From assembly GCA_014804285.1 (NCBI GenBank), contig JAAVAA010000069.1, forward strand, positions 47,276 through 93,481: a stretch of 46,206 nt of DNA, written 5' to 3'. How positions within the stretch are numbered: position 1 is the stretch's first letter; each line of letters begins with the position of its first letter. Below the pieces are notes generated by a model. It was given only the letters and a program-made list of their open reading frames with translations. It did not search any database and was not told the DNA's origin. This stretch comes from Lachnospiraceae bacterium (GTDB lineage: Bacteria > Bacillota > Clostridia > Lachnospirales > Lachnospiraceae). The position numbers and the translations under genes were made by a program. Of this stretch, positions 3,477 to 46,206 are shown in pieces.

Positions 3477-3547
<71 letters not shown>

Positions 3548-3550
3548 TAC

Positions 3551-3584
3551 AAAGAGCCTTGATTTATCAGGGTTCTTTCTTTTT
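3551..3584. terminator. Intrinsic terminator between tRNA and integrase
   Basis: AAAGAGCCTTGAT-TT-ATCAGGGTTCTTT hairpin followed by a T-rich tract. Confidence 0.6.
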
Positions 3585-4616
3585 GTGTTGCATTTCGTGT
3601 TGCATGTTTTCAAAATGCTTAAAGGTAATATCTTGAAATTGTTTATTGTAAGTGTCAATTGTTCCTCTGTATATGTCTTTTAAGGTTTTGTCAGAAGCCC
3701 AGCCTCCACGTTGCATGATATACTGATCAGGAACACCCAAAGCGTGCATGATACTGGCAGCATAGTGCCTGAGATCATGAAATCTAAAATGTGTTATCCC
3801 AAGTTTAGTGAGAGTTCTTCCATGCCTTATACTGATTCGGTCAGGATTTATTGATACAACATATCCTTCTTTCGGAAGCATGTCAATAATAAATTGTGGC
3901 ATATTAATGTCCCGTGCACTGGACGAATTCTTGACAAACGGTTTTAATACAAATTGATTATTGCTGTCTTTTACTTTTGCTTGTCTTATATGCAGGGTAT
4001 TCCCAGTTATATGGTTTGCGTCAAGTCCGCAGATTTCAGAACGGCGCAGCGTGCCGAAAGCTGACAGACAGCTTGCAATCAGCATATCATTATCATTTTC
4101 AGAATAATATCTGATAAGTTCCTGAATCTCTTCATCATTCGGGACATATCCGTCATACCTGATTTTCGAAGGAAGAGTAACATTTACAGAAAATGTTTCC
4201 AGATTGTCTTTCATAACCGCACTTAGAAATCCATAGGCATTCCGGACAGACTTCGGAGAATGATTCTCAGAATAACGATTGATCCACCTTTGAAGGGTAA
4301 TTTTGTTTAATTCAGATAATTTTTTGTCTTCAATATCACTGTATGCGCTATTGCGAAGCTGCTCATATCCCCGTATAGTAGAAGGAGAAAGTACTGATTT
4401 TTTTAGGTTGCAATATTCATTCATGGCTTCACACAGTATTATATCTTTTGAGAATTCACTTTCTTCTTTTTGATTGCAGACATATTGTGTTGCCAGCAAT
4501 TCTGCTTCTTTTTTTGTGTCAGCGGTAAAAGACTTATATTTCCGCTTTCCGTGCTCCATGCCTATGTAAATAAGGCATCGGTATTTTCCTGATGGTAGTT
4601 TCTTTGCTGTAGCCAT
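3567..4616 (-). CDS. int: Tyrosine recombinase (phage integrase)
   Basis: LRRSEI, HDLRH, GGW and DIY catalytic motifs; N-terminal arm-binding-like segment; SD GGAGG before MATAKK. Confidence 0.95.
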   Translation of the reverse strand: MATAKKLPSGKYRCLIYIGMEHGKRKYKSFTADTKKEAELLATQYVCNQKEESEFSKDIILCEAMNEYCNLKKSVLSPSTIRGYEQLRNSAYSDIEDKKLSELNKITLQRWINRYSENHSPKSVRNAYGFLSAVMKDNLETFSVNVTLPSKIRYDGYVPNDEEIQELIRYYSENDNDMLIASCLSAFGTLRRSEICGLDANHITGNTLHIRQAKVKDSNNQFVLKPFVKNSSSARDINMPQFIIDMLPKEGYVVSINPDRISIRHGRTLTKLGITHFRFHDLRHYAASIMHALGVPDQYIMQRGGWASDKTLKDIYRGTIDTYNKQFQDITFKHFENMQHEMQHKKKEP

Positions 4617-4776
4617 AGTATTATCCTCCTTAAAAATGATATAAAAATGCCCGGTGACTTGATTTTGCACCGGAAAAATGATACAATTTATTCTGTCATG
4701 AATAAGTTGTATCGGGATTCCCGGTATACCTTGTACCTACCGCTCTGGTGTTGCTGCGTCAGGGCGGTTTTTCTGT

Positions 4777-5122: not shown

Positions 5123-6094
5123 CTACCTGAAGCAATGTCCGCAAGTACTATATCCTTGGCTTTCCAGTTCACTTATACTTAAATTTGATGTTGAATAATT
5201 TTCGGGCGCAATTTTCTTAACATCATTACAAGTTGGCCAGTGAAATTTGAAAGTAGATGTATTCAAAACAAACATATCAGAGGTTTGTTGTTGTTCAAGA
5301 TTGTTATATGTGTTGAAATTGTTTTCGCTTGAATTATAAGTACCTTCAGTTTGAGTCGGGGCATCAGCGATAAATCCGGTGCTAGATGTTCCTTGCTCAA
5401 CAGGAATGGTATACAATAAAGTTTCCGAAGAATTTTCAGGTTCTAAAAGCTTCATGGAGTTGTCAGATTTTTCATTATTGCTTAAAATATTTTCTGCCTC
5501 ACCAGTGCTTAAATCTATAAAATATTCGGCTAACAGCATACCGCCAAAGAGAGCACTTGCGTCATGTTCTTCACCAGCGACATATTCATGTATAGCAACA
5601 TCTAGTGTTCCGCCATAAGGTACAGATATAGATGTAGTTGTATTTAAAGAAAAGTTTACAATGGCATGAATTTCATCATCTGAACTGAAAAAAGTATTAT
5701 AATAATCGACAACATATTCTGTTATATCTTTTGATGATGCAATGGAAGATATTCTCCACTTTCCTGTTATATCATTTATCACCGAATCAGAAAACCAGAA
5801 TTCTATATCATCAATAGTGTATGTACCTGATTTGACGGTTTCAGAATCTGTTTGTGTTTCTGGTATAATATCGTTAGGTTCCGGATTGTCAGTTTGTTGC
5901 TGAGGCTCAATTTGGTTAGATATATCAGGAGTATCACTTATATAGGCAGTGTTTTGAAGGGAGGATTTATTATTTTTACTCGATATATTATTATTCGAGT
6001 TAGGATAAATGAACAAAATGAAACATACTAAAATAACAGTACAACACCCTATTATTCCTAAAAATACGGTTAATAAATTAAATATTTGTTTCAC
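5123..6094 (-). CDS. Membrane-anchored protein with C-terminal Ada-like Zn-binding domain (lysogenic conversion gene)
   Basis: N-terminal TM, acidic linker, C-terminal NTSTFKFHWPTC...CGHC; lies between int and repressor. Confidence 0.65.
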   Translation of the reverse strand: MKQIFNLLTVFLGIIGCCTVILVCFILFIYPNSNNNISSKNNKSSLQNTAYISDTPDISNQIEPQQQTDNPEPNDIIPETQTDSETVKSGTYTIDDIEFWFSDSVINDITGKWRISSIASSKDITEYVVDYYNTFFSSDDEIHAIVNFSLNTTTSISVPYGGTLDVAIHEYVAGEEHDASALFGGMLLAEYFIDLSTGEAENILSNNEKSDNSMKLLEPENSSETLLYTIPVEQGTSSTGFIADAPTQTEGTYNSSENNFNTYNNLEQQQTSDMFVLNTSTFKFHWPTCNDVKKIAPENYSTSNLSISELESQGYSTCGHCFR

Positions 6095-11707: not shown

Positions 11708-12478
11708 GTGAACTATATAGCCGAAATAAAAGCATTCTACGATAGGCTCGAACTAAATCCGCTGCCCTCACCGGCCATCGTCTTATGGCATGCGCTTATG
11801 TCCATAGCGAATAAAACCGGTTGGCAGCAAGAGTTTACGGTAGCCGTATCAGTCCTGGTGCTGAAATCGGGATTGAATGCACAGGCGATCAAGAGGGCGA
11901 GGAACCGCCTTGAACAAGATGGGTTTATCACATGGCGTTCCCGTGGTGGAAACCAGTCTGCAATCTATCATCTTAATAGTATTGTGGTACAAAATGATGC
12001 TAGAAATGTACCACAGTGTGAACCACAAAGTGAACCACAGACCGACCCACAGAGCGTACCACAGTGTGAACCACAAAGTGAACCCATTAATAAACATAAA
12101 CTAAACAAAACAAATATCCCCCCTATATCCCCCGTGGAGCGTTTCGAGGATTTCTTGTCTGCATATCCGAAAGAATGTAACAGGTATCTGACAGAGACAG
12201 CCTATATTGATTTGCTGATGACCGGGAAGCTGACAGAAGAGGTGCTCATTGAGTGTGCACACAACTATGCGGAAACGTGCAGGATTCTCAAAACGCAGGA
12301 AAAGTATGTCAAGAATGCGGAAAATTTCTTGAAGGAACTCGTGTTTGAAAAATATCTTCCGGGAAAGTACAAAAAGCCGAAAGGGGAAACAAAACAGCAG
12401 GGGCAGTTTAATCAATTTCCTCAGAGAAATTATGATTTTGAAGCACTTGAAAACGAGTTACTTAAGGAGCAGATATGA
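11708..12478 (+). CDS. Phage replication initiator (N-terminal wHTH, internal iterons)
   Basis: MNYIAEIKAFYD..LWHALM..RARNRL; internal PQ repeats; C-terminal QRNYDFEALE. Confidence 0.8.
   Translation: MNYIAEIKAFYDRLELNPLPSPAIVLWHALMSIANKTGWQQEFTVAVSVLVLKSGLNAQAIKRARNRLEQDGFITWRSRGGNQSAIYHLNSIVVQNDARNVPQCEPQSEPQTDPQSVPQCEPQSEPINKHKLNKTNIPPISPVERFEDFLSAYPKECNRYLTETAYIDLLMTGKLTEEVLIECAHNYAETCRILKTQEKYVKNAENFLKELVFEKYLPGKYKKPKGETKQQGQFNQFPQRNYDFEALENELLKEQI
12008..12084 (+). repeat. 12-bp iteron array; probable phage origin
   Basis: About six ACCACA-containing units at 12-bp spacing inside rep, followed by an A-rich tract. Confidence 0.7.
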
Positions 12479-12843: not shown

Positions 12844-13524
12844 ATGAAGAAATATGAATTTACAGGTGAAACAAAGAAGACAGGTATTTTTGGAGATATA
12901 ACGGTAAGAAGAATACGGGCTACAGTAGCATTCGGATTGATTGAAGTGGGTGATCTTGGTGGCTGGATTGAGAAAGAAGAAAATCTTTCCCATGAAAATA
13001 ATGCCTGGGTCTACGGTAATGCCGAGGTCTGCGGTAATGCCAAGGTCTGCGGTGATGCCTGGGTCTACGGTAATGCCAAGGTCTGCGGTGATGCCTGGGT
13101 CTACGGTGATGCCGAGGTCTACGGTAATGCCAAGGTCTGCGGTAATGCCAAGGTCTGCGGTGATGCCAAGGTCTGCGGTGATGCCGAGGTCTACGGTAAT
13201 GCCAAGGTCTGCGGTGATGCCGAGGTCTACGGTAATGCCAAGGTCTGCGGTAATGCCGAGGTCTGCGGTAATGCCGAGGTCTTTTCAGCAAGACACCTTC
13301 TGGTTATCGGACCGATCGGAAGCAGAAATGCTTTTACTACATTTTTCAGGGACAAAGACAAAGAAATAACCGTCAGATGCGGTTGTTTTCTGGGAAAGAT
13401 TGACAAATTCTTAGAAAAAGTTCAGCAGACACACGGAGAGAGCAAATATGCGCTTGTCTACAGAGCAGCGGTGGATATTGCCAAACTTCATATAGATCTT
13501 ACAGAGGAAACAAAAGAAGAGTGA
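12844..13524 (+). CDS. Phage hexapeptide-repeat (left-handed beta-helix-like) protein
   Basis: MKKYEFTGE..GDLGGWIEKEENLS, G[ND]A[KEW]V[CY] repeats, VRCGCFLG C-terminal domain. Confidence 0.85.
   Translation: MKKYEFTGETKKTGIFGDITVRRIRATVAFGLIEVGDLGGWIEKEENLSHENNAWVYGNAEVCGNAKVCGDAWVYGNAKVCGDAWVYGDAEVYGNAKVCGNAKVCGDAKVCGDAEVYGNAKVCGDAEVYGNAKVCGNAEVCGNAEVFSARHLLVIGPIGSRNAFTTFFRDKDKEITVRCGCFLGKIDKFLEKVQQTHGESKYALVYRAAVDIAKLHIDLTEETKEE
13015..13284 (+). repeat. 15 tandem 18-bp coding repeats
   Basis: GGT(A/G)ATGCC(AAG/GAG/TGG)GTCT(A/G)C, plus a partial unit at 12997. Confidence 0.95.
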
Positions 13525-20221: not shown

Positions 20222-20641
20222 ATGAAACAGGATCAGACAGAGATTGAACTGAAAAAAGAATACCTCAGGGGCTATGAGAAAGCAAAGCGCCAGATGGAAC
20301 GTAGCGAACTCAAAATAAGAGAAATGCGTTTGAACAGAATATGCCCTCCTGTAATAAATGACGGTATGCCCCACGCTTCAAGTCAAAATGATTTATCCAG
20401 TTATGCTGCACTGTTGGATCAGGAAGAAAAGCGGTATATGCGGTACAGGTACCAGCGGATCCAGAAGTGCAAGGAGATTACCGACCGGATAGAACAGCTT
20501 TCTGATGAAGATGAAAAAGATGTTCTGATGTACCGGTACATAAAGCTGATGAAGTGGGAAGATATTTGTGTGAAAATAGGGCATAGCTGGCAACATACTC
20601 ATAGAATTCATGCAAAAGCACTAAAAAATTTTAAAATGTGA
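20222..20641 (+). CDS. ArpU/RinA-like late transcriptional activator
   Basis: KKEYL..Y; VLMYRYI..WEDI..HRIHAKAL C-terminal HTH; last early gene. Confidence 0.8.
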   Translation: MKQDQTEIELKKEYLRGYEKAKRQMERSELKIREMRLNRICPPVINDGMPHASSQNDLSSYAALLDQEEKRYMRYRYQRIQKCKEITDRIEQLSDEDEKDVLMYRYIKLMKWEDICVKIGHSWQHTHRIHAKALKNFKM

Positions 20642-20824
20642 TTAAATGTTACTATCTGAGTATGCTATAGTGGAAGCTGAAAAGAAGAAATACTTCTCCC
20701 CAATACATTTTTTAAAATACCTGACTGGTGAACAGTCGGGTATTTTTATATTACTTATAGGTAAATGGTAAATTGTCGAATTTTAGTGTATTATATAGAA
20801 AAATGTATTGGAGGGGGTTAATTT
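20636..20824 (+). promoter_or_regulatory. Late promoter, terminator-like hairpin and moron leader
   Basis: TG-C-TATAGT extended -10; hairpin 20714-20746; homologous to about 43790-43945. Confidence 0.6.
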
Positions 20825-21436
20825 ATGAATATGGATGTTCTTATTTTTTTGTACAGTCTTTTAGTTTTCGGTATGATTATTGCGGAAATAGTTCTATTGC
20901 AAAATAATAAAGGGAGATATTTAGTAACGTCATATAAAGCAATAGAAAAAATATGTTATGACATTGTTGATGAAGATGATGGTACGTATAGTGTCGATGA
21001 ATTAATAGTATCTATCAATAGATTTTACGAAGAATATGTTCAAGAAGATTCAAAAGTAAAAAAGTATTTTCCCAATGTAGTAATATGGTTAGATGCAATT
21101 ATATTTAGAGTTGATTGTGGGTATAGCAGGGCACGAATTTTAAGTAGCTGTATATTAGGCCTTAAGGAGGCGAGAGATGAATTAGAACGTGAAAATCCAT
21201 TTAACAAATGTGAAAAATATCAGCAAGATATTCTGAATGATATCAACAAATTAAAGACGGATCAAAATAGCATAATTATATCAAATATTGTAAAAAGAAC
21301 AGAGGATGAGTTTATAAGGATGTCAAGAGACATAAATAAAAATGATAGAGCAAATAAAATATCAATGGTTATTGGTATAATTGGAATTATTGTATCTATA
21401 GGTATGGCGTTTGTGAAATTTAGTACAACAAGTTAG
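20825..21436 (+). CDS. AT-rich moron membrane protein (N- and C-terminal TM)
   Basis: AT-rich, own leader, between late activator and terS. Confidence 0.7.
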   Translation: MNMDVLIFLYSLLVFGMIIAEIVLLQNNKGRYLVTSYKAIEKICYDIVDEDDGTYSVDELIVSINRFYEEYVQEDSKVKKYFPNVVIWLDAIIFRVDCGYSRARILSSCILGLKEARDELERENPFNKCEKYQQDILNDINKLKTDQNSIIISNIVKRTEDEFIRMSRDINKNDRANKISMVIGIIGIIVSIGMAFVKFSTTS

Positions 21437-21507
21437 ACAGTGACAATGGTTACAGATTGATTATTTAAATGTTTTTTCTCAAAACAAACGAATGAGAGGT
21501 GGTGATC

Positions 21508-22404
21508 GTGCCAAGGAAGCCAGATAAGCGAATAGAGCAAGCACAGGCGTTGTACCTGAAAGGCTTGAAATTAGTGGATATTTCCAAGCAGCTTGATCTG
21601 CCTGAGGGGACGATTCGAAGCTGGAAGAATAGATATAGATGGGATAATGGTTCTAATGCAACGTTGCAAAAAAATGATTGCAACGTTGCGAAAGAAAAGC
21701 ATATAAAAAAAGATAAAGTAAAAGCCATTGCAGATGAAGTTAATCAGGTAATAGAAAATACTGATTTAACCGATAAGCAAAGGCTTTTTTGCTGTTTGTA
21801 TATTAAGTGTTTCAATGCTACCAAAGCATATCAGAAAGCATATGGAGTAGACTATATTACAGCCTGTGGAAATGCTTCAAAATTATTGAAAAGTATTGAA
21901 ATAAAAAATGAAATCCAACGCCTAAAACAGAACCGCCTTAACAGAGAAATGTTATCTGAAGAGGATATATTTCAGAAGTACATGGATATAGCCTTTGCAG
22001 ATATCACTGATTACGTAGAATTTGGACGTGAGACAGTTCCAGTCATGGGACCATTTGGCCCCGTTATAGTGAAAGATGAAGAAACCGGTGCCAAAGTAGA
22101 GGTAAAAAAAGAAATAAATGTGGTTCGGTTCAAGGAAAGTATTGAAGTTGATGGAACGCTGATCACGGAAGTCAAGCAGGGAAAAGATGGAGCGAGTATA
22201 AAGCTTGCCGACCGCATGAAAGCATTGCAGTGGATTTCAGATCATATGGATTTGGCTACGGCGGAGCAGAAAGCAAGAATTGCAGTTCTTCAATCACAGG
22301 TAGTACAGAAAGATGAAACCAAAGAGCAGGTGCAAGATTGGAAAACAGCGATCATTGAGATAGCAAAGCGAAGGAGTGAAAAGGCAGATGGAAGAACTGA
22401 TTGA
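21508..22404 (+). CDS. terS: Terminase small subunit
   Basis: N-terminal HTH (GTIRSWKNRYRW), LTDKQRLFC..NATKAY, KLADRMKAL. Confidence 0.88.
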   Translation: MPRKPDKRIEQAQALYLKGLKLVDISKQLDLPEGTIRSWKNRYRWDNGSNATLQKNDCNVAKEKHIKKDKVKAIADEVNQVIENTDLTDKQRLFCCLYIKCFNATKAYQKAYGVDYITACGNASKLLKSIEIKNEIQRLKQNRLNREMLSEEDIFQKYMDIAFADITDYVEFGRETVPVMGPFGPVIVKDEETGAKVEVKKEINVVRFKESIEVDGTLITEVKQGKDGASIKLADRMKALQWISDHMDLATAEQKARIAVLQSQVVQKDETKEQVQDWKTAIIEIAKRRSEKADGRTD

Positions 22405-23779
22405 CGCTTTGGAAGTCTATTATGATGATCCGGTTGCTTTTCTGGAAGATATGCTTGATATGAATTGTGATGATTGGCAGGGAGAGGTTGCTTCTGATGT
22501 AGCAGAATATGCCAAAGTAGCAGTTAAGTCCGGTCAGGGTGTAGGTAAGACAGCTCTGGAAGCCGGGCTTATTATTTGGTTTCTTGTGTGCCGCCCATAT
22601 TCCAAGGTGATAGCTACGGCACCCACCATGCAGCAACTTTATGACGTTCTTTGGGCTGAAATTGCAAAGTGGCTTGGTTCTTCCAAGGTGAAGAACCTGC
22701 TCACATGGACCAAAACGAAGGTTTACATGGTAGGGGATTCTGAACGGTGGTTTGCTACTGCCAAGACAGCAACAAAGCCTGAAAACATGCAGGGATTTCA
22801 TGAAGATCACATGCTGATTGTAGTAGACGAAGCATCGGGCGTTGCGGATCCGATCATGGAAGCAATACTCGGAACACTGACGGGATTTGACAATAAGCTC
22901 CTTCTGATGGGAAACCCAAACCGAATTGAAGGAGTATTTTTTGACGCATTTAATAAAGACAGGGATAAGTTCAGAACCCACACAGTAAGCAGCCGGAATA
23001 GTAAGCGAACGTCCAGAGATAACATTGCCATGCTGGAATCTAAGTATGGGAAAGATTCAGATGTTGTCCGGGTGCGTATTGACGGCCAGTTCCCTAAAGG
23101 AGCGCTTGACTCTTTTATATCATTGGAAACAGTTGAGCTTGCCTGCTCCAAGGAAAACCGGATCAGACAACAGGATATTGATACGGCACAAATCCTTCAT
23201 ATTGGTGTTGATGTGGCAAGGTTTGGTGATGATAAGACGGTAATAACTCCAAGGATCAGTGCAAAGGTGTTTGAATTCAGGAAATACACAAAGAAAAGTA
23301 CAATGGAAACAGCCGGCAATGTGATCAAATGCTGCAGGGATTATATGAGGCAGTTTCCGCATATAAAGAAATGCCTCATAAAAGTAGATGATTCCGGTGT
23401 TGGCGGCGGTGTGACAGATCGCTTGAATGAAGTAATCCGGGAAGAAAAGCTTCCTTACACGGTAATTCCGGTAAATAATGGGGATTCAGCTACGGACGGG
23501 TTTTTTTTTAATCTGGGAGCGCAGATCTGGGGAAATATAAAGGAATTGCTTGAAAACAATTTCTCCAATAATTTGCAAGGAAAGCAGGACGTTCAGATAG
23601 AGCTTCCGCATGATGAAGAAATGATAAAGCAACTAAGTGTCAGAAAGTATCATATGACTTCCAAAGGCAAAATACAGCTTGAATCAAAAGAGGATATGAA
23701 AAAGCGGGGGCTGGGTTCACCGGATACCGCCGATGCTCTTTCTCTTGCATTGTATGAGCCCGACACATGGTTGTATTAG
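22388..23779 (+). CDS. terL: Terminase large subunit
   Basis: SGQGVGKT, VVDEASG, GNP, GVDVARFGDD, SPDTADAL. Confidence 0.93.
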   Translation: MEELIDALEVYYDDPVAFLEDMLDMNCDDWQGEVASDVAEYAKVAVKSGQGVGKTALEAGLIIWFLVCRPYSKVIATAPTMQQLYDVLWAEIAKWLGSSKVKNLLTWTKTKVYMVGDSERWFATAKTATKPENMQGFHEDHMLIVVDEASGVADPIMEAILGTLTGFDNKLLLMGNPNRIEGVFFDAFNKDRDKFRTHTVSSRNSKRTSRDNIAMLESKYGKDSDVVRVRIDGQFPKGALDSFISLETVELACSKENRIRQQDIDTAQILHIGVDVARFGDDKTVITPRISAKVFEFRKYTKKSTMETAGNVIKCCRDYMRQFPHIKKCLIKVDDSGVGGGVTDRLNEVIREEKLPYTVIPVNNGDSATDGFFFNLGAQIWGNIKELLENNFSNNLQGKQDVQIELPHDEEMIKQLSVRKYHMTSKGKIQLESKEDMKKRGLGSPDTADALSLALYEPDTWLY

Positions 23780-41435: not shown

Positions 41436-42635
41436 ATGGTAGTAGGCATTAATTGCGGACATACAGCCAGCGGTCCCGGATATGGTGCCGTTGGCATTAT
41501 TAAAGAAAGTGAACATACCCGTTTGGTGGGGCAGGCTCTTATGGGACTGCTCCGATCAGCGGGGGCAACGGTAATTGATTGTACCATAGATCAGGCGAAT
41601 ACTCAAAATGAATATCTTGCTGCAGCGGTAGCACTGGCAAACCGGCAGGACTTAGACTGGTTTATCAGCATTCACTTCAATGCATCAGCCAGTCATGAGG
41701 GGCATGGAGCGGAAGTGTTTACCTATGAGGGCAGGCAATACCAAGATGCTTTGGACGTATGCGCGAACCTTGCGGAGCTTGGATTTACAAACCGTGGAGT
41801 AAAAGCCGGATCAGGATTATATGTTATCCGGAAGACGAAAGCGAAGGCCATGTTAATAGAGTGCTGCTTCTGTGATAATCAGCAGGACATAGATATCTAC
41901 AATGCGGCAGGTGGAGCAGAGGGAATTGCAAAGGCGATCTACAAAGGTATTTATAAAGAAGCTGTTCTTCCTTCCGTGCAGACTCCTTCAGCGGAGAATC
42001 ACAACCTTACAAGGGAAGAATTCCATGGATTTGTAGGGAATATTGCCCGGAAGGATTGGGAAGACCGACACATCATGCTTCCGAGTGTAATTATAGCACA
42101 GGCAGCCATCGAAAGCGGTGTGGGAACATCAGAACTTGCGCAGAATGCGAATGCTTTATTTGGCATTAAGCTAAACGGATGGACAGGAAGAAGCTATGTA
42201 AAAGATGCTACAGAACAAAATCCGGACGGAAGCTATCGAGTGGATCAGAATGCCTTATGGCGGGCTTATGACAGTTGGGAGCAGTCTATTCTGGACCATA
42301 GCGAGTATATAGCTACCAGAAGTACAGATGGCGGTAAGACCTTAAGGTATAATCCAGTGATTGGATGTGATAGTTATATTCTCACTTGCCAGCACCTGCA
42401 GCAGTGCGGATACGCCACTTCACGGACTTATGCGGAAACGCTGATAAATTATATTGAAAAATATAATCTTAAAAGCTATGATGAATTTGAACCAGAGCAG
42501 ATCGCACCGGAAGGATTTTTATGGATTGTACAGGTGGGAGCATACAAGAGCCTGAGCGATGCCAAGAAATTGCAGAGCAGGCTTGAAAAGATGGGAGTTA
42601 TTTCCTCGATCAATAGGTACAATATTGAGGGGTAA
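41436..42635 (+). CDS. Endolysin: Amidase_3 + GH73 glucosaminidase + SPOR domain
   Basis: GH..E..SIHFNA..LIECCF; AQAAIESG..NALFGIK..GYAT; VQVGAY. Confidence 0.9.
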   Translation: MVVGINCGHTASGPGYGAVGIIKESEHTRLVGQALMGLLRSAGATVIDCTIDQANTQNEYLAAAVALANRQDLDWFISIHFNASASHEGHGAEVFTYEGRQYQDALDVCANLAELGFTNRGVKAGSGLYVIRKTKAKAMLIECCFCDNQQDIDIYNAAGGAEGIAKAIYKGIYKEAVLPSVQTPSAENHNLTREEFHGFVGNIARKDWEDRHIMLPSVIIAQAAIESGVGTSELAQNANALFGIKLNGWTGRSYVKDATEQNPDGSYRVDQNALWRAYDSWEQSILDHSEYIATRSTDGGKTLRYNPVIGCDSYILTCQHLQQCGYATSRTYAETLINYIEKYNLKSYDEFEPEQIAPEGFLWIVQVGAYKSLSDAKKLQSRLEKMGVISSINRYNIEG

Positions 42636-42794
42636 TTTCGTGTTGCATTTCGTGTTGCATAGTTTTAAATTTGTATGTAAATTTCAATTTTTAAATTAAA
42701 ATTTATTCACATACATGTAATAATAAATCCAGTAAATACAAGGAATTCGAGAAAAGTATTGTATTTACTGGATTTTATAAAATATGTTCTAATA

Positions 42795-42821
42795 GGGTTC
42801 GATTCCCGTCATCTGCTTACA
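42795..42821 (+). repeat. attR core
   Basis: Identical to 3525-3551. Confidence 0.95.
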
Positions 42822-43044
42822 TACGAAACAGCCGTAAACTTGAAGGATTTATAGTAGAATCAAGGGTTTACGGCTGTTTTTATGGTTATTTTTACAATCC
42901 CAAATATCGTCTTCTTAAAAATGGTATAAAAATGCTTAGTATCTTGATTTTGAGCCGGGTGCCAGTGCATTAATAAACTTTGATATTGGACATTGACTTA
43001 TACGCATAAAAGACGCATAATAACAATTGGAAGGAGAAAACAGG

Positions 43045-43218
43045 ATGAAGACAAAAGACCTTATCAAACTGCTAGAAAGCAATGGCTGGAAGTTTAAGCG
43101 GCACGGCGGAAACCATGATGTTTATGAAAAAGATGGAAAAAGAGAAAGCATCGTAAGGCATAGGGAAACGGATGAAGATTTGGCAAAGGCAATCATCAAG
43201 CGGAACGGGCTTAAATAA
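43045..43218 (+). CDS. hicA: HicA family mRNA interferase toxin
   Basis: LIKLLESNGW.F.RHGGNHD..RH.E; SD AAGGAG; TTGACT-17-CATAAT promoter with ACGCATAA repeats. Confidence 0.9.
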   Translation: MKTKDLIKLLESNGWKFKRHGGNHDVYEKDGKRESIVRHRETDEDLAKAIIKRNGLK

Positions 43219-43278
43219 GCCTAGTATCCGCAGGATATAATATTATAAAGTTATAAGTATAGGAGGTTAACGGAGTAA

Positions 43279-43677
43279 ATGAAAAAGACATATCCAGTTA
43301 TTTTGTCGCAGGGAGAAAAATTTGTTATAGCATATGTGCCGGATTTTGACATTAATACGCAGGGCACAGATATTACGGACGCAATTGAAATGACGAGAGA
43401 TGCAATAGGCGTTGTCGGTATTGATATGGAAGATGATGGGGAAGTTCTGCCAGAACCGACAGCTGTTTCGGAAGTGAAAGTAGATACGGCAGCAGGGATT
43501 GTGACGCTCGTGGATGTGGATTTTGGGGAGTATCGCAGGAAAAATGACATGAGGGCGGTAAAAAAGAACTGCACGATACCCTCATGGCTTAATTTTGAAG
43601 CGGAAAAGGCAGGGGTGAATTTTTCTGCAATCCTGACAGCGGCGCTTAAAAGTGAATTGAAAATTCAGAGCAGATGA
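43279..43677 (+). CDS. hicB: HicB family antitoxin
   Basis: YPVIL..VPDF..TQG..AIEM.RDA..LPEP; C-terminal KKNCTIPSWL..NFS. Confidence 0.9.
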   Translation: MKKTYPVILSQGEKFVIAYVPDFDINTQGTDITDAIEMTRDAIGVVGIDMEDDGEVLPEPTAVSEVKVDTAAGIVTLVDVDFGEYRRKNDMRAVKKNCTIPSWLNFEAEKAGVNFSAILTAALKSELKIQSR

Positions 43678-43948
43678 GTAAATAGACAGCGGTTGAGGAA
43701 GCGGACGGAATCAATATAGTATCATTGGATTTGGGTGAAAAAATTTTAAAATTTTGCAAAATGACATAGAATGATATACTCAATCTGTGATATAGTACAA
43801 GTTGAAAAAAGAAATACTTTTCCCCCAATACATTTTTAAAAATACCCGACTGGTGAACAGTTGGGTATTTTCACGTTACTTATTGGTAAATAGCAAATTG
43901 TCGAATTTTAATGTATTATGTAGAAAAATGTATTGGAGGAATTTGAAT

Positions 43949-45094
43949 ATGGATTATGCTATTATGAGTAATGCATTTAAACAGTTAGAAAATTTTTGTA
44001 TACCAGAAATTAGTGATACTGTAAATTTTTGGATGATCCGATCTAAAGGAGGGTATTTTTATCATGAATATATAAAAGAAGAATTTATTGCACTGGGATG
44101 GAATTTTATTGATAAATCAACAGCAATTAATAGTCAGATGATTGATATCTTGAAGGAGGGAATAAGGGATCGGTATGGCGATAAAAGACCTATGTATGCT
44201 ATCAACAAATGCAATAAGTTTATAGGTGGCATGAAAGAAGGGGATTATGTTATAATTCCAGATATGGGTAGTACTAAAGTTGCAATTTGTATTGTAGGGG
44301 AATATTATGAAAGGGAAATAGATTATAAGAAGGAAATTGAAATTATACATAAAATTGATAATCGGGAATTTGAGGTTAATCAAATAGAATGCCCATATAA
44401 AAAACGAAGAAAAATACAGGTGCTTTTGGAAGTATCTACAAAAAGAATAGGGCATAATATTTTAAAAGCATTGACATCGTACCATGGCTTAAGTGATATG
44501 AATGACTATGCATATGATATTTTGAATTGCGTATATGATTGTTATAGTTATAACGGAGATGTAATTTTTTCTTTAAATGTAGGGAAAGAGGAACCAATCA
44601 GACCTAGAGAAGTAGCGAAGCTTATGTATGGAATAACAAGTTTTTTTGGATCGGTGGTTGATGAGGAAACATTGGCAACTTCCTTAAATTTGAATTCGCC
44701 AGGAAAAGTTGTTGTATTTTTAAAGAAAGGATTTTCTTCACTAAAAAAGAAGGTTCTTCCACTTGTAGGTGTTTATATTGCAATTGTAGGCGGTTCAGGG
44801 TTTGGGTTCGAATTTCCAGGACTTGTTGGATTTATTAAAGAAGTACAGACGATGGAAATTGATTTGGAAAAGGAAAAGACCGAATTAGACAGTTTACGTT
44901 TGGAAAACTATCAAAAAGCTCTTGAAGTAATCAAAGATGCAAAAGATGAGGGGATAGATTTGGATGAAGTTTTACAAGGATTAGAAACTTTAGAGAGCTT
45001 GAATAAAGTATTGCATTTTGAGGGAAATCAAGAGTTTGCCTTGGAGAAAAATCGACAGGCGGAAGTTGAAGTGGTGGAAGCTGATGAGGAATGA
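43949..45094 (+). CDS. AT-rich moron protein with N-terminal EVE/PUA-like domain, hydrophobic segment and coiled coil
   Basis: FWMIRS.GG..IALGW..MKEGDYVIIP..G.Y..R.I pattern; SD GGAGG before MDYAIM. Confidence 0.6.
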   Translation: MDYAIMSNAFKQLENFCIPEISDTVNFWMIRSKGGYFYHEYIKEEFIALGWNFIDKSTAINSQMIDILKEGIRDRYGDKRPMYAINKCNKFIGGMKEGDYVIIPDMGSTKVAICIVGEYYEREIDYKKEIEIIHKIDNREFEVNQIECPYKKRRKIQVLLEVSTKRIGHNILKALTSYHGLSDMNDYAYDILNCVYDCYSYNGDVIFSLNVGKEEPIRPREVAKLMYGITSFFGSVVDEETLATSLNLNSPGKVVVFLKKGFSSLKKKVLPLVGVYIAIVGGSGFGFEFPGLVGFIKEVQTMEIDLEKEKTELDSLRLENYQKALEVIKDAKDEGIDLDEVLQGLETLESLNKVLHFEGNQEFALEKNRQAEVEVVEADEE

Positions 45095-45308
45095 TGTGGC
45101 AAATATGTTATATGCTTTATTCTTTGTAATTGTATCTCTTTTTACTTGGTGTTCTATAAGTTTTAAAATAGCAGATTATATATGGGGAGAAGAAACACTG
45201 TTTTCAAGAAAAAAAAATGCAATTTTAATATATTTAATTAGCATATTTATAGCTTTAATAATGACAGGAATAGTTTATTGCCTAATATTATTTATACAAA
45301 GTCTATAA
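45084..45308 (+). CDS. Small two-TM membrane protein
   Basis: Overlaps the upstream stop; two hydrophobic helices; start may be 45105. Confidence 0.6.
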   Translation: MRNDVANMLYALFFVIVSLFTWCSISFKIADYIWGEETLFSRKKNAILIYLISIFIALIMTGIVYCLILFIQSL

Positions 45309-45352
45309 ATAATTAAATTGACAAAACAACACAAATCAGGCGGTGATAGGGA

Positions 45353-45830
45353 GTGAATGAAGTAGATAAAGGAAAGGTTAAAGTTGATTATCTAAGCGGT
45401 ATGAAGCAGAAAGATATTATACAGAAGTACAATCTTCCATTAATTACTTTGAAATCATGGATAAAGCGCTATCACTGGTCAGAAGAGAAAAAGGGTGCAC
45501 CCTAAAATAATAGAAATGCAGTCGGAAATAATGGAAGAACACCACCTAAAAATAGTAACGCAGAGAAGCATGGTCTTATTCGGAAATACCTTCTGGAAGA
45601 GACCTTTTCTATTATTGATGAAATAAAGAGTAAATCACCCCTTGATCTGATATGGGACGCAATACAGATCCAATATGCCGCAATCATACGGTCACAGCAG
45701 ATCATGTACGTTCGTGACCAGGAAGATAAAATAATAGAGAAGGTTGAGGAAAAATCAGGTAATATTTTCGGTGAGCCGTGGGGAGTGCAGCAGACATGAG
45801 ATAATCAGGCCTGCTTTTTAAAGCCCAGGG
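45353..45830 (+). pseudogene. Terminase small subunit pseudogene (type differs from the resident prophage terS)
   Basis: DYLSGMKQKDI..TLKSWIKRYHW..KGAP*NNRNAVGN..NAEKHG..IQYAAIIRSQ; in-frame stops at 45503 and 45797. Confidence 0.8.
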
Positions 45831-45877
45831 TACAACAATCATTGAGATAGCAAAGCGGCGGATGAGTGAAAAAACAG

Positions 45878-46206
45878 ATGAAAGAACTGATTGACGCTTT
45901 GGAAGTCTATTATGATGAGCCGGTCGCCCTTCTGGAAGATATGCTTGATATGAATTGTGACGATTGGCAGAAACAGAAAAAGGCATTTGTGAATCTTTTC
46001 AGGGCATTGGATCACGATTTTGCACACCTGAAATCATTTTCTGTTTATGAACCGCATGTATTGGACGAGTTTGGCTTTTCCGAAGAGGAATATGAAAATT
46101 ATGCAGCAATGTATAAGAATGTAATGGAAGAATTGAAAAAGCCAGATGATAATTCAGGCACTGATGAAGAGCCTGTGTGGGATGATTATGATTTGGTGGC
46201 TTACAG
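45878..46206 (+). CDS. Chimeric ORF: TerL N-terminus fused to an HsdR C-terminal-like segment (3' truncated by window)
   Basis: First 31 codons match terL; continues in frame as KQKKAFVNLFRALD..LKSF..GFSEEEYENYAAMYKNV..DYDL. Confidence 0.6.
   Translation, partial: MKELIDALEVYYDEPVALLEDMLDMNCDDWQKQKKAFVNLFRALDHDFAHLKSFSVYEPHVLDEFGFSEEEYENYAAMYKNVMEELKKPDDNSGTDEEPVWDDYDLVAY

Follow-up and report, generated by a model that had tools for sequence, protein, structure and literature searches.

Genes with which a prophage defends its host must be off when the phage itself goes lytic, which raises the question of how a defence-like or toxic gene could be carried inside a late operon. The locus considered here lies in a 46,206-nt stretch of a Lachnospiraceae bacterium genome (assembly GCA_014804285.1, contig JAAVAA010000069.1, positions 47,276 to 93,481; hereafter, the window), where a cargo gene is placed between the gene of a late activator and terS of an intact prophage. 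In the leader of this cargo gene, the segment CCAATACATTTTT (20700-20712), designated the seed, is the exact reverse complement of 20799-20811, part of a target that includes the Shine-Dalgarno sequence (SD) of the cargo. Comparison of related sequences from prophages of gut bacteria indicates that this element is real and selected. We further consider it likely, with a probability of roughly 0.6, that a leader complementary to the cargo ribosome binding site (RBS) blocks translation of the cargo in cis on the long late mRNA.

Apart from one near-palindrome without orientation, the features of the leaders and of the genes around them are on the plus strand. The leader consists of (i) a pyrimidine stretch facing the SD (anti-SD) with the 13-nt seed (20695-20712), (ii) a terminator-like hairpin (20714-20746; 14 pairs), (iii) the near-palindrome (20751-20764), conserved in cassettes with long spacers and overlapping the region 5′ of the internal -35, (iv) a candidate internal promoter with a poor -35 and a conserved -10 (20766-20794; TGGTAA at 20766-20771, 17 nt, TATTAT at 20789-20794), and (v) the target, an A-rich stretch with the SD of the cargo (20799-20817). 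An initial annotation, made from the letters of this DNA, had described the inverted repeat, the hairpin and the TGGTAA-17-TATTAT promoter as well as a second copy of the layout at 43825-43837 / 43924-43936, and all of these were confirmed. In copy 2 the anti-SD, the seed (43825-43837) and the hairpin (43839-43871) occupy 43820-43871, and the internal -10, the target (43924-43936) and the SD occupy 43914-43939. The hairpin of each copy contains one G-U pair, at neighbouring positions.

Of 2000 dinucleotide-shuffled versions of the 189-nt region, 3 contained a perfect 13-nt inverted repeat, and the C fraction of the anti-SD stretch is 0.58, compared to 0.16 upstream. The proposal that pairing extends over the cargo SD was borne out by folding: both leaders are predicted to fold the seed onto the target and SD, at -45.9 kcal/mol (z -6.4) for copy 1 and -42.2 kcal/mol (z -5.4) for copy 2, with 0 of 200 shuffles in each case. 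The duplex of the copy-1 target with its own seed was calculated at -23.4 kcal/mol. The internal promoter was not called by a consensus scan (its -35 has three of six matches to TTGACA), Rfam gave no match at the gathering score (best SpF11, 24 bits against 54, E 0.12), and a pattern scan did not find the motif at further gene starts in the window. A TGTCGAA stretch was considered as a Spo0A box and rejected; although Spo0A is present in the host, the box is not enriched at that spacing across the genome.

To define the distribution of the element, a cassette was taken as seed, hairpin, -10 box, and target with SD, and 51 cassettes were collected. A survey anchored on the activator gene gave 194 loci (193 with the activator stop) in 98 clusters, or 99 including the window. 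The seed was present in 28 of the 99 clusters, where the gene next to it was foreign in 24, terS in three, and tail genes in one; most seedless loci, by inspection, lead straight to terS or structural genes. The target motif was found at the cargo position in 16 of the 28 clusters with a seed, compared to 3 of the 71 seedless clusters, and these three are near-identical and carry a degenerate seed. Scanning with the target pattern produced 21 viral matches (16 distinct), of which nine lie in the activator-terS slot, three of them on contigs already in the survey. A seed lies upstream in eight of these nine; the remaining one is truncated by the contig end. Outside the slot there were seven matches, four of them apparently due to chance and three being looser target-like starts that lack a seed.

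A hunt for targets that could be regulated in trans, covering five records (30 of 34 matches inspected) and the genome of origin, found no orphan target; it yielded two new cassettes behind a different activator family, each with its own seed. The second gene of locus L214 was considered as a trans target and rejected, since it has a seed of its own. Sixteen viral loci matched a seed-plus-hairpin pattern, 13 of them new and more diverged, while the seed pattern placed after TATAGT matched 28 loci, of which the five adjoining an activator were all already in the set. Matches of a 14-nt pattern in viral contigs were judged to be due to chance, and scanning for relatives of the second activator family was without result. 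Among genomes of the same genus, the element was detected in 14 of 60 at E up to 0.001 (11 at E below 1e-10); a family-wide search gave just short weak matches, in 8 of 400 genomes. The strict target pattern occurred in none of 401 genomes searched family-wide, and a diverged pattern in one of 301 genomes searched in the order. A collection of annotated phages contained no DNA match to the element and three distant matches to the activator.

The view that the slot is a reusable socket with exchangeable cargo was supported, as the 50 first-cargo open reading frames (ORFs) fall into 38 unrelated families. Judged by sequence, the slot is a conserved cargo socket and some of its cargo is defence-like. 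The suggestion of defensive cargo stands for 7 of 42 cargo proteins, which match PADLOC models at E up to 0.001 (Kiwa, AbiH, dGTPase, PDC-S31, PDC-S34, and PDC-S02 twice, in the N-terminal part only); the other 35 do not match. Further cargo contains DUF2806, DUF6864, DUF4062, a dCTP-deaminase-like domain, an SDH protease, a ParA-type ATPase or an Sll1717-type ATPase, and most cargo has no family assigned. Cargo 1 (20825-21436), a protein of 203 aa with hydrophobic ends, has no match in Pfam, PADLOC or NCBIfam, and its look-alikes are hypothetical proteins only. Cargo 2 (43949-45094; 381 aa) matches PDC-S02 of PADLOC in its N-terminal part, and its look-alikes bear DUF8426; the cargo of locus L407, which is 82% identical to it, lies behind another activator with its own cassette. 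In contigs of two public sequencing runs, 20814 is joined to 21474-21480 with other sequence between, consistent with exchange of cargo between the leader and terS.

The case for selection of the element rests mainly on the persistence of both arms while everything between and around them was replaced. The arms, 57-161 nt apart, surround different hairpins, spacers and promoters and occur behind two activator families. The initial annotation had expected complementarity to be kept in diverged homologues, as was indeed found: cassette duplexes have a median of -17.9 kcal/mol, and 42 of 51 reach -14 kcal/mol or better. The same seeds gave a median of -9.0 kcal/mol on terS-like starts (n=30) and a mean of -9.4 kcal/mol on 479 other SD-led starts. 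The 7-bp core of the 42 strong cassettes comprises 264 Watson-Crick, 11 G-U, 7 A-C, and 12 other cells, so that 94% of core positions (275/294) are paired. Complementarity also runs past variable bulges into the C-run facing the SD, and there is a weak correlation between the core-to-C and core-to-G spacings (rho 0.33, p 0.03). Cognate pairs exceeded permuted pairs in the set of 51 cassettes, in which kin are not independent (p 0.005, or 0.015 without nine near-duplicates), and a swap from U-A to A-U at position -3 (5/10 vs 1/32) represents about three independent events. Nevertheless, covariation of the long helix is weak.

The transcription of the slot is framed by its activator. The gene at 20222-20641, described as ArpU-like in the initial annotation, encodes a late transcription regulator of the DUF1492/LtrB family (PF07374 above the cut-off), with weak similarity to sigma-70. 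DUF1492 represents the LtrB family of late activators, whose binding sites are repeats just distal to the ltr genes (PMC3753634; this and the other sources are cited for the available parts of their text). The gene carries the DUF1492 domain, is followed by distal repeats and lies upstream of terS, and agrees in these respects with LtrB late regulators. Its structural model had a pLDDT of 70, and fold and profile searches returned only coiled coils and a weak sigma region 4. The repeat box (20638-20652), a likely binding site of the activator, is followed by an extended -10 box (TATG-C-TATAGT, 20661-20671), the putative late promoter, with a predicted start near 20678. In loci L180-L371, the sequence of the C-terminal helix of the activator tracks the repeat type (QHxHR, KQxHR, KWxHK, and RRTHY, each with its own box), and this correspondence appears to be a readable recognition code. 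Because box type tracks the activator helix, we read the promoter as activator-controlled.

An extended -10 (TRTGnTAynnT) directly after the repeat box was found in 85 of the 97 activator clusters with enough sequence, and 79 of these 85 loci have a hairpin and U-tract downstream, compared to 6 of 59 shuffled sequences. Loci L227 and L324 are among the few without the hairpin, and there the leader runs straight to terS. The hairpin of copy 1 was positive in a terminator scan, which did not call that of copy 2, and it covaries clearly, with 10 of 15 pairs changed on both sides among 13 homologues. It is most simply read as a generic terminator of late leaders. Since it is general to these leaders, read-through to terS would need antitermination, and a terminator between the extended -10 and terS suggests that LtrB-type proteins may act as antiterminators. 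This amends the earlier scheme, in that the timing of cargo silencing would depend on an antitermination step which is itself hypothetical. The locus also offers a testable case of antitermination for Ltr/RinA-type regulators, the mechanism of which is left open in PMC3152322, as far as its available text goes.

The preferred mechanism would operate as follows. In the lysogen, transcripts from upstream would stop at the hairpin, and the cargo would be made from the internal promoter, on an RNA without the seed. On induction, the late promoter would give activator-dependent RNA that passes the hairpin and the cargo to terS, by antitermination or leak-through. This RNA would fold the seed onto the target and SD, the hairpin bringing the arms together, so that transcription from the strong late promoter could cross a defence or toxic gene with none of its protein being produced. 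Recombination swaps cargo and activators, and this would keep seed and target near-standard. Action in cis on read-through RNA is favoured because slot targets carry their own upstream seed and because of three further observations: (i) the predicted accessibility of the SD is 0.19 in read-through RNA and 0.66 in RNA from the internal promoter, and is lower in the former in 49 of 51 cassettes, (ii) in 21 of 28 the pairing continues 5′ of the expected internal +1, and (iii) the tandem second cargo of L214/L372 keeps a seed though its hairpin and late box have decayed, which fits read-through. A -10-like hexamer precedes the target in 34 of the 42 strong cassettes, in 24 at the same offset. Occlusion of the RBS, as originally envisaged in cis or in trans, is predicted only for RNA started upstream; the trans form found no support, as no seedless slot target was seen. 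Overall, the interpretation in the initial annotation is partly supported.

A number of observations weigh against this reading. The covariation that had been put forward as a check, although weakly present in the 51 cassettes, was absent in the first 28 (p 0.34-0.87), and in 13 close homologues only 1 of 13 pairs of the long helix had changed on both sides. The ratio of G-U to A-C (11:7 in the core, 13:12 over all 51) shows no RNA-strand bias, the anti-SD helix alone gave p 0.03 (0.06 after dereplication), and 9 of 51 cassettes pair weakly, including those with the dCTP-deaminase-like and PDC-S31 cargo. Seeds occur without cargo (L016, L235, L311, L186, L185), looser target-like starts occur without seeds elsewhere in phages (L373, L376, L392), and the 13-bp pair of copy 2 is still perfect although the remnant around it lacks an activator. 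The candidate internal promoter has a poor -35 whereas host promoters are of the TTGACA-17 type, and several cassettes, copy 1 among them, showed no terminator separating the cargo from terS. Finally, in Staphylococcus aureus the terS transcription start was mapped 23-24 nt before terS, and RinA binds over 155 bp upstream (PMC3152322); if the start is as close to terS here, late RNA would not cross the cargo. A more far-reaching form of cis silencing, which we regard as unlikely, is an RNA standard for self-immunity shared across the phage population: one seed would silence any slotted defence gene in cis, the terminated leader, being abundant, would act in trans as well, on cargo in the same socket of other prophages, whether co-resident or rival, and LtrB-type proteins would be Q-like antiterminators. 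If trans silencing were true, the intact phage would mute the PDC-S02-like gene of the remnant beyond attR.

The strongest competing explanation, although an improbable one, is that the extended -10 is a constitutive promoter, like lambda pR′, and that its terminated leader of ~75 nt is a small RNA repressing cargo in trans in the lysogen, either damping expression as StxS does or acting as an antitoxin-like guard that decays when an invader stops transcription. In agreement with this, a terminator comes after the near-consensus TRTGnTATAGT in 79 of 85 loci, and the seed-then-terminator order is a small-RNA architecture, as in StxS, which arises in the same way and represses stx1B (PMC7547250). 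Moreover, seeds cross-pair freely (the copy-1 seed on the copy-2 start gives -21.1 kcal/mol) and persist without cargo in cis. However, the -35 position is occupied by repeats that track activator type, the activator-terS slot held no seedless target, the second seed of L372 lacks both a promoter box and a terminator of its own, and pairing extends upstream of the expected internal +1. That the pairing is unselected, a chance inverted repeat in one ancestral promoter/RBS unit that was spread by recombination, is doubtful and ranks lower than either the small RNA or the DNA operator considered below. A single origin is likely, 9 of 51 cassettes are weak, and the repeat is retained in seed-only and decayed loci, but neutral inheritance does not readily account for two arms that outlast spacer, hairpin, activator family and cargo, nor for the pairing of 275 of 294 core positions (94%) in the 42 strong cassettes.

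The arms might instead be inverted DNA sites for one protein, at the late leader and at the cargo start, with RNA pairing incidental; we consider this improbable too, placing it after the small RNA. The core lacks a bias of G-U over A-C and is conserved as sequence more than as pairs, and a change of specificity would likewise alter both sites together. Against it stand the complementarity that crosses variable bulges into the C-run facing the SD and the weak correlation of spacings noted above; no shared regulator was seen among the cargo, and further gene starts in the window lack the motif. An inverted repeat that flanks a promoter and a terminator also recalls the recombination sites of an invertible switch, or the ends of a miniature mobile element. 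This is very improbable, as none of the 51 cassettes is inverted, contigs (which drop rare forms) show no strand-change joints at either copy, and the repeats are bulged, imperfect and variably spaced.

Read as cis silencing, the socket resembles several known systems. In IS10 and IS50, a gene with a promoter of its own has its start region sequestered in RNA that was initiated outside the element. These elements guard against accidental read-through from the host, whereas the socket would guard against the programme of the element itself. RBS-sequestering leaders are known from the T4 genes e, soc, 49, and I-TevI (PMC3014915). As in gene e, upstream-initiated RNA would fold over the SD, a promoter inside the structure would give translatable RNA, and the phage would be protected from an ill-timed toxic protein. 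By analogy, the socket would be RBS sequestration of this kind, as a reusable unit with the timing reversed, i.e. predicted to be silent late and on in the lysogen. In contrast to the gene-specific hairpin of T4, its long-range helix would close over a terminator and a whole promoter, and it is shared by at least 38 unrelated cargo families. StxS, from lambdoid pR′-tR′ (PMC7547250), is likewise a late-promoter leader that is terminated early and is complementary to the RBS of a late-region gene. It acts in trans in the lysogen, with Hfq, through two short sites and by about 2- to 3-fold, whereas the socket, found in Firmicute phages, has one site of 13-19 bp and a cis seed per target.

Among defence loci, the TERi hotspot of Listeria prophages (bioRxiv 10.1101/2025.02.27.640495) similarly combines a conserved promoter with alternating defence cargo that needs neutralisation on induction, but relies on antisense orientation, the early module and immunity proteins; the socket is on the same strand, in a late slot, with a cargo-independent RNA element. 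In S. aureus prophages, Tha/Ith (PMC11087260) also ties defence shut-off to the lytic switch by genome architecture, through an inhibitor protein and antisense transcription, and no RBS-pairing leader is described in the available text. In both cases a dedicated inhibitor protein serves each system, while a cargo-independent RNA catch would explain how unrelated defence genes are swapped into a late operon without new inhibitors. The order of activator gene, distal repeats, terminator and terS is that of Ltr/RinA (PMC3753634, PMC3152322), but the available parts of these accounts describe no anti-RBS or cargo, and the socket has a strong extended -10 in front of its terminator. Literature searches, with subscription papers outside their coverage, found no description of the element, and a term search in the available text of PMC7397523 gave nothing. 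The motif would mark a hotspot, and the unannotated majority of the 38 cargo families are candidates for new defence systems.

The intact prophage extends from the attL core (3525-3551), at the 3′ end of a tRNA gene (3477-3547), to the attR core (42795-42821), the two forming a perfect 27-nt repeat; an integrase gene (3567-4670; profile match) lies near attL. Copy 1 is situated between the DUF1492 gene and terS of this prophage (21508-22404; PF03592; SD-led start). Copy 2 lies outside it, beyond attR, after hicAB (43027-43677; PF07927, PF15919), and is followed by a fragment comprising a terS end and terL start (45832-45970; repeats D3 and D8 with 22345-22480), which is 87-91% identical to 22345-22480 of the intact prophage. 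Copy 2 represents the corresponding slot, between activator and terS, of a second prophage that has decayed. Its activator box, which with an extended -10 occupies 43763-43796, is of another type than that matching the resident activator, and the genome contains only one close activator homologue. Two copies with different cargo, as initially annotated, are thus present, but they belong to two prophages, one of them decayed and without the box type of the resident activator.

The remnant (42822-45970) comprises hicAB, the cassette, cargo 2, a small membrane ORF and a terS that by eye is broken, and its terL fragment is fused to unrelated sequence. One contig of sequencing run X1 covers 42536-43969. 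A 34-nt repeat near both ends of the intact prophage (3581-3614 / 42636-42669) may represent arm sites of the integrase.

Several peculiarities were seen in other late leaders. In L375, L461, and L462, tRNA genes (Ile-TAT, Arg-GCG, and Trp-CCA) lie directly before the seed. L235 and L311 carry a non-coding insert of ~300 nt before terS, ~130-420 nt past the activator, and the L220/L263 groups a recurrent second hairpin in seedless leaders; neither matched Rfam. In L184, L186, L216, and L295 the activator is followed by tail-like genes and a degenerate seed, without terS, possibly a tail-only element. An inserted promoter with a second partial seed is located ~130-200 nt past the activator in L315 and L316, upstream of Kiwa in L315; it contains a palindrome that we take to resemble a LexA box. 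In the early region of the prophage in the window, ORFs hold tandem repeats of 18-nt and 12-nt units (12945-13336 and 12008-12084) with a YdcK beta-solenoid match. Finally, a 322-aa ORF on the minus strand between the integrase and repressor genes (5123-6094), with no match in Pfam or PADLOC, was read as a second cargo slot.
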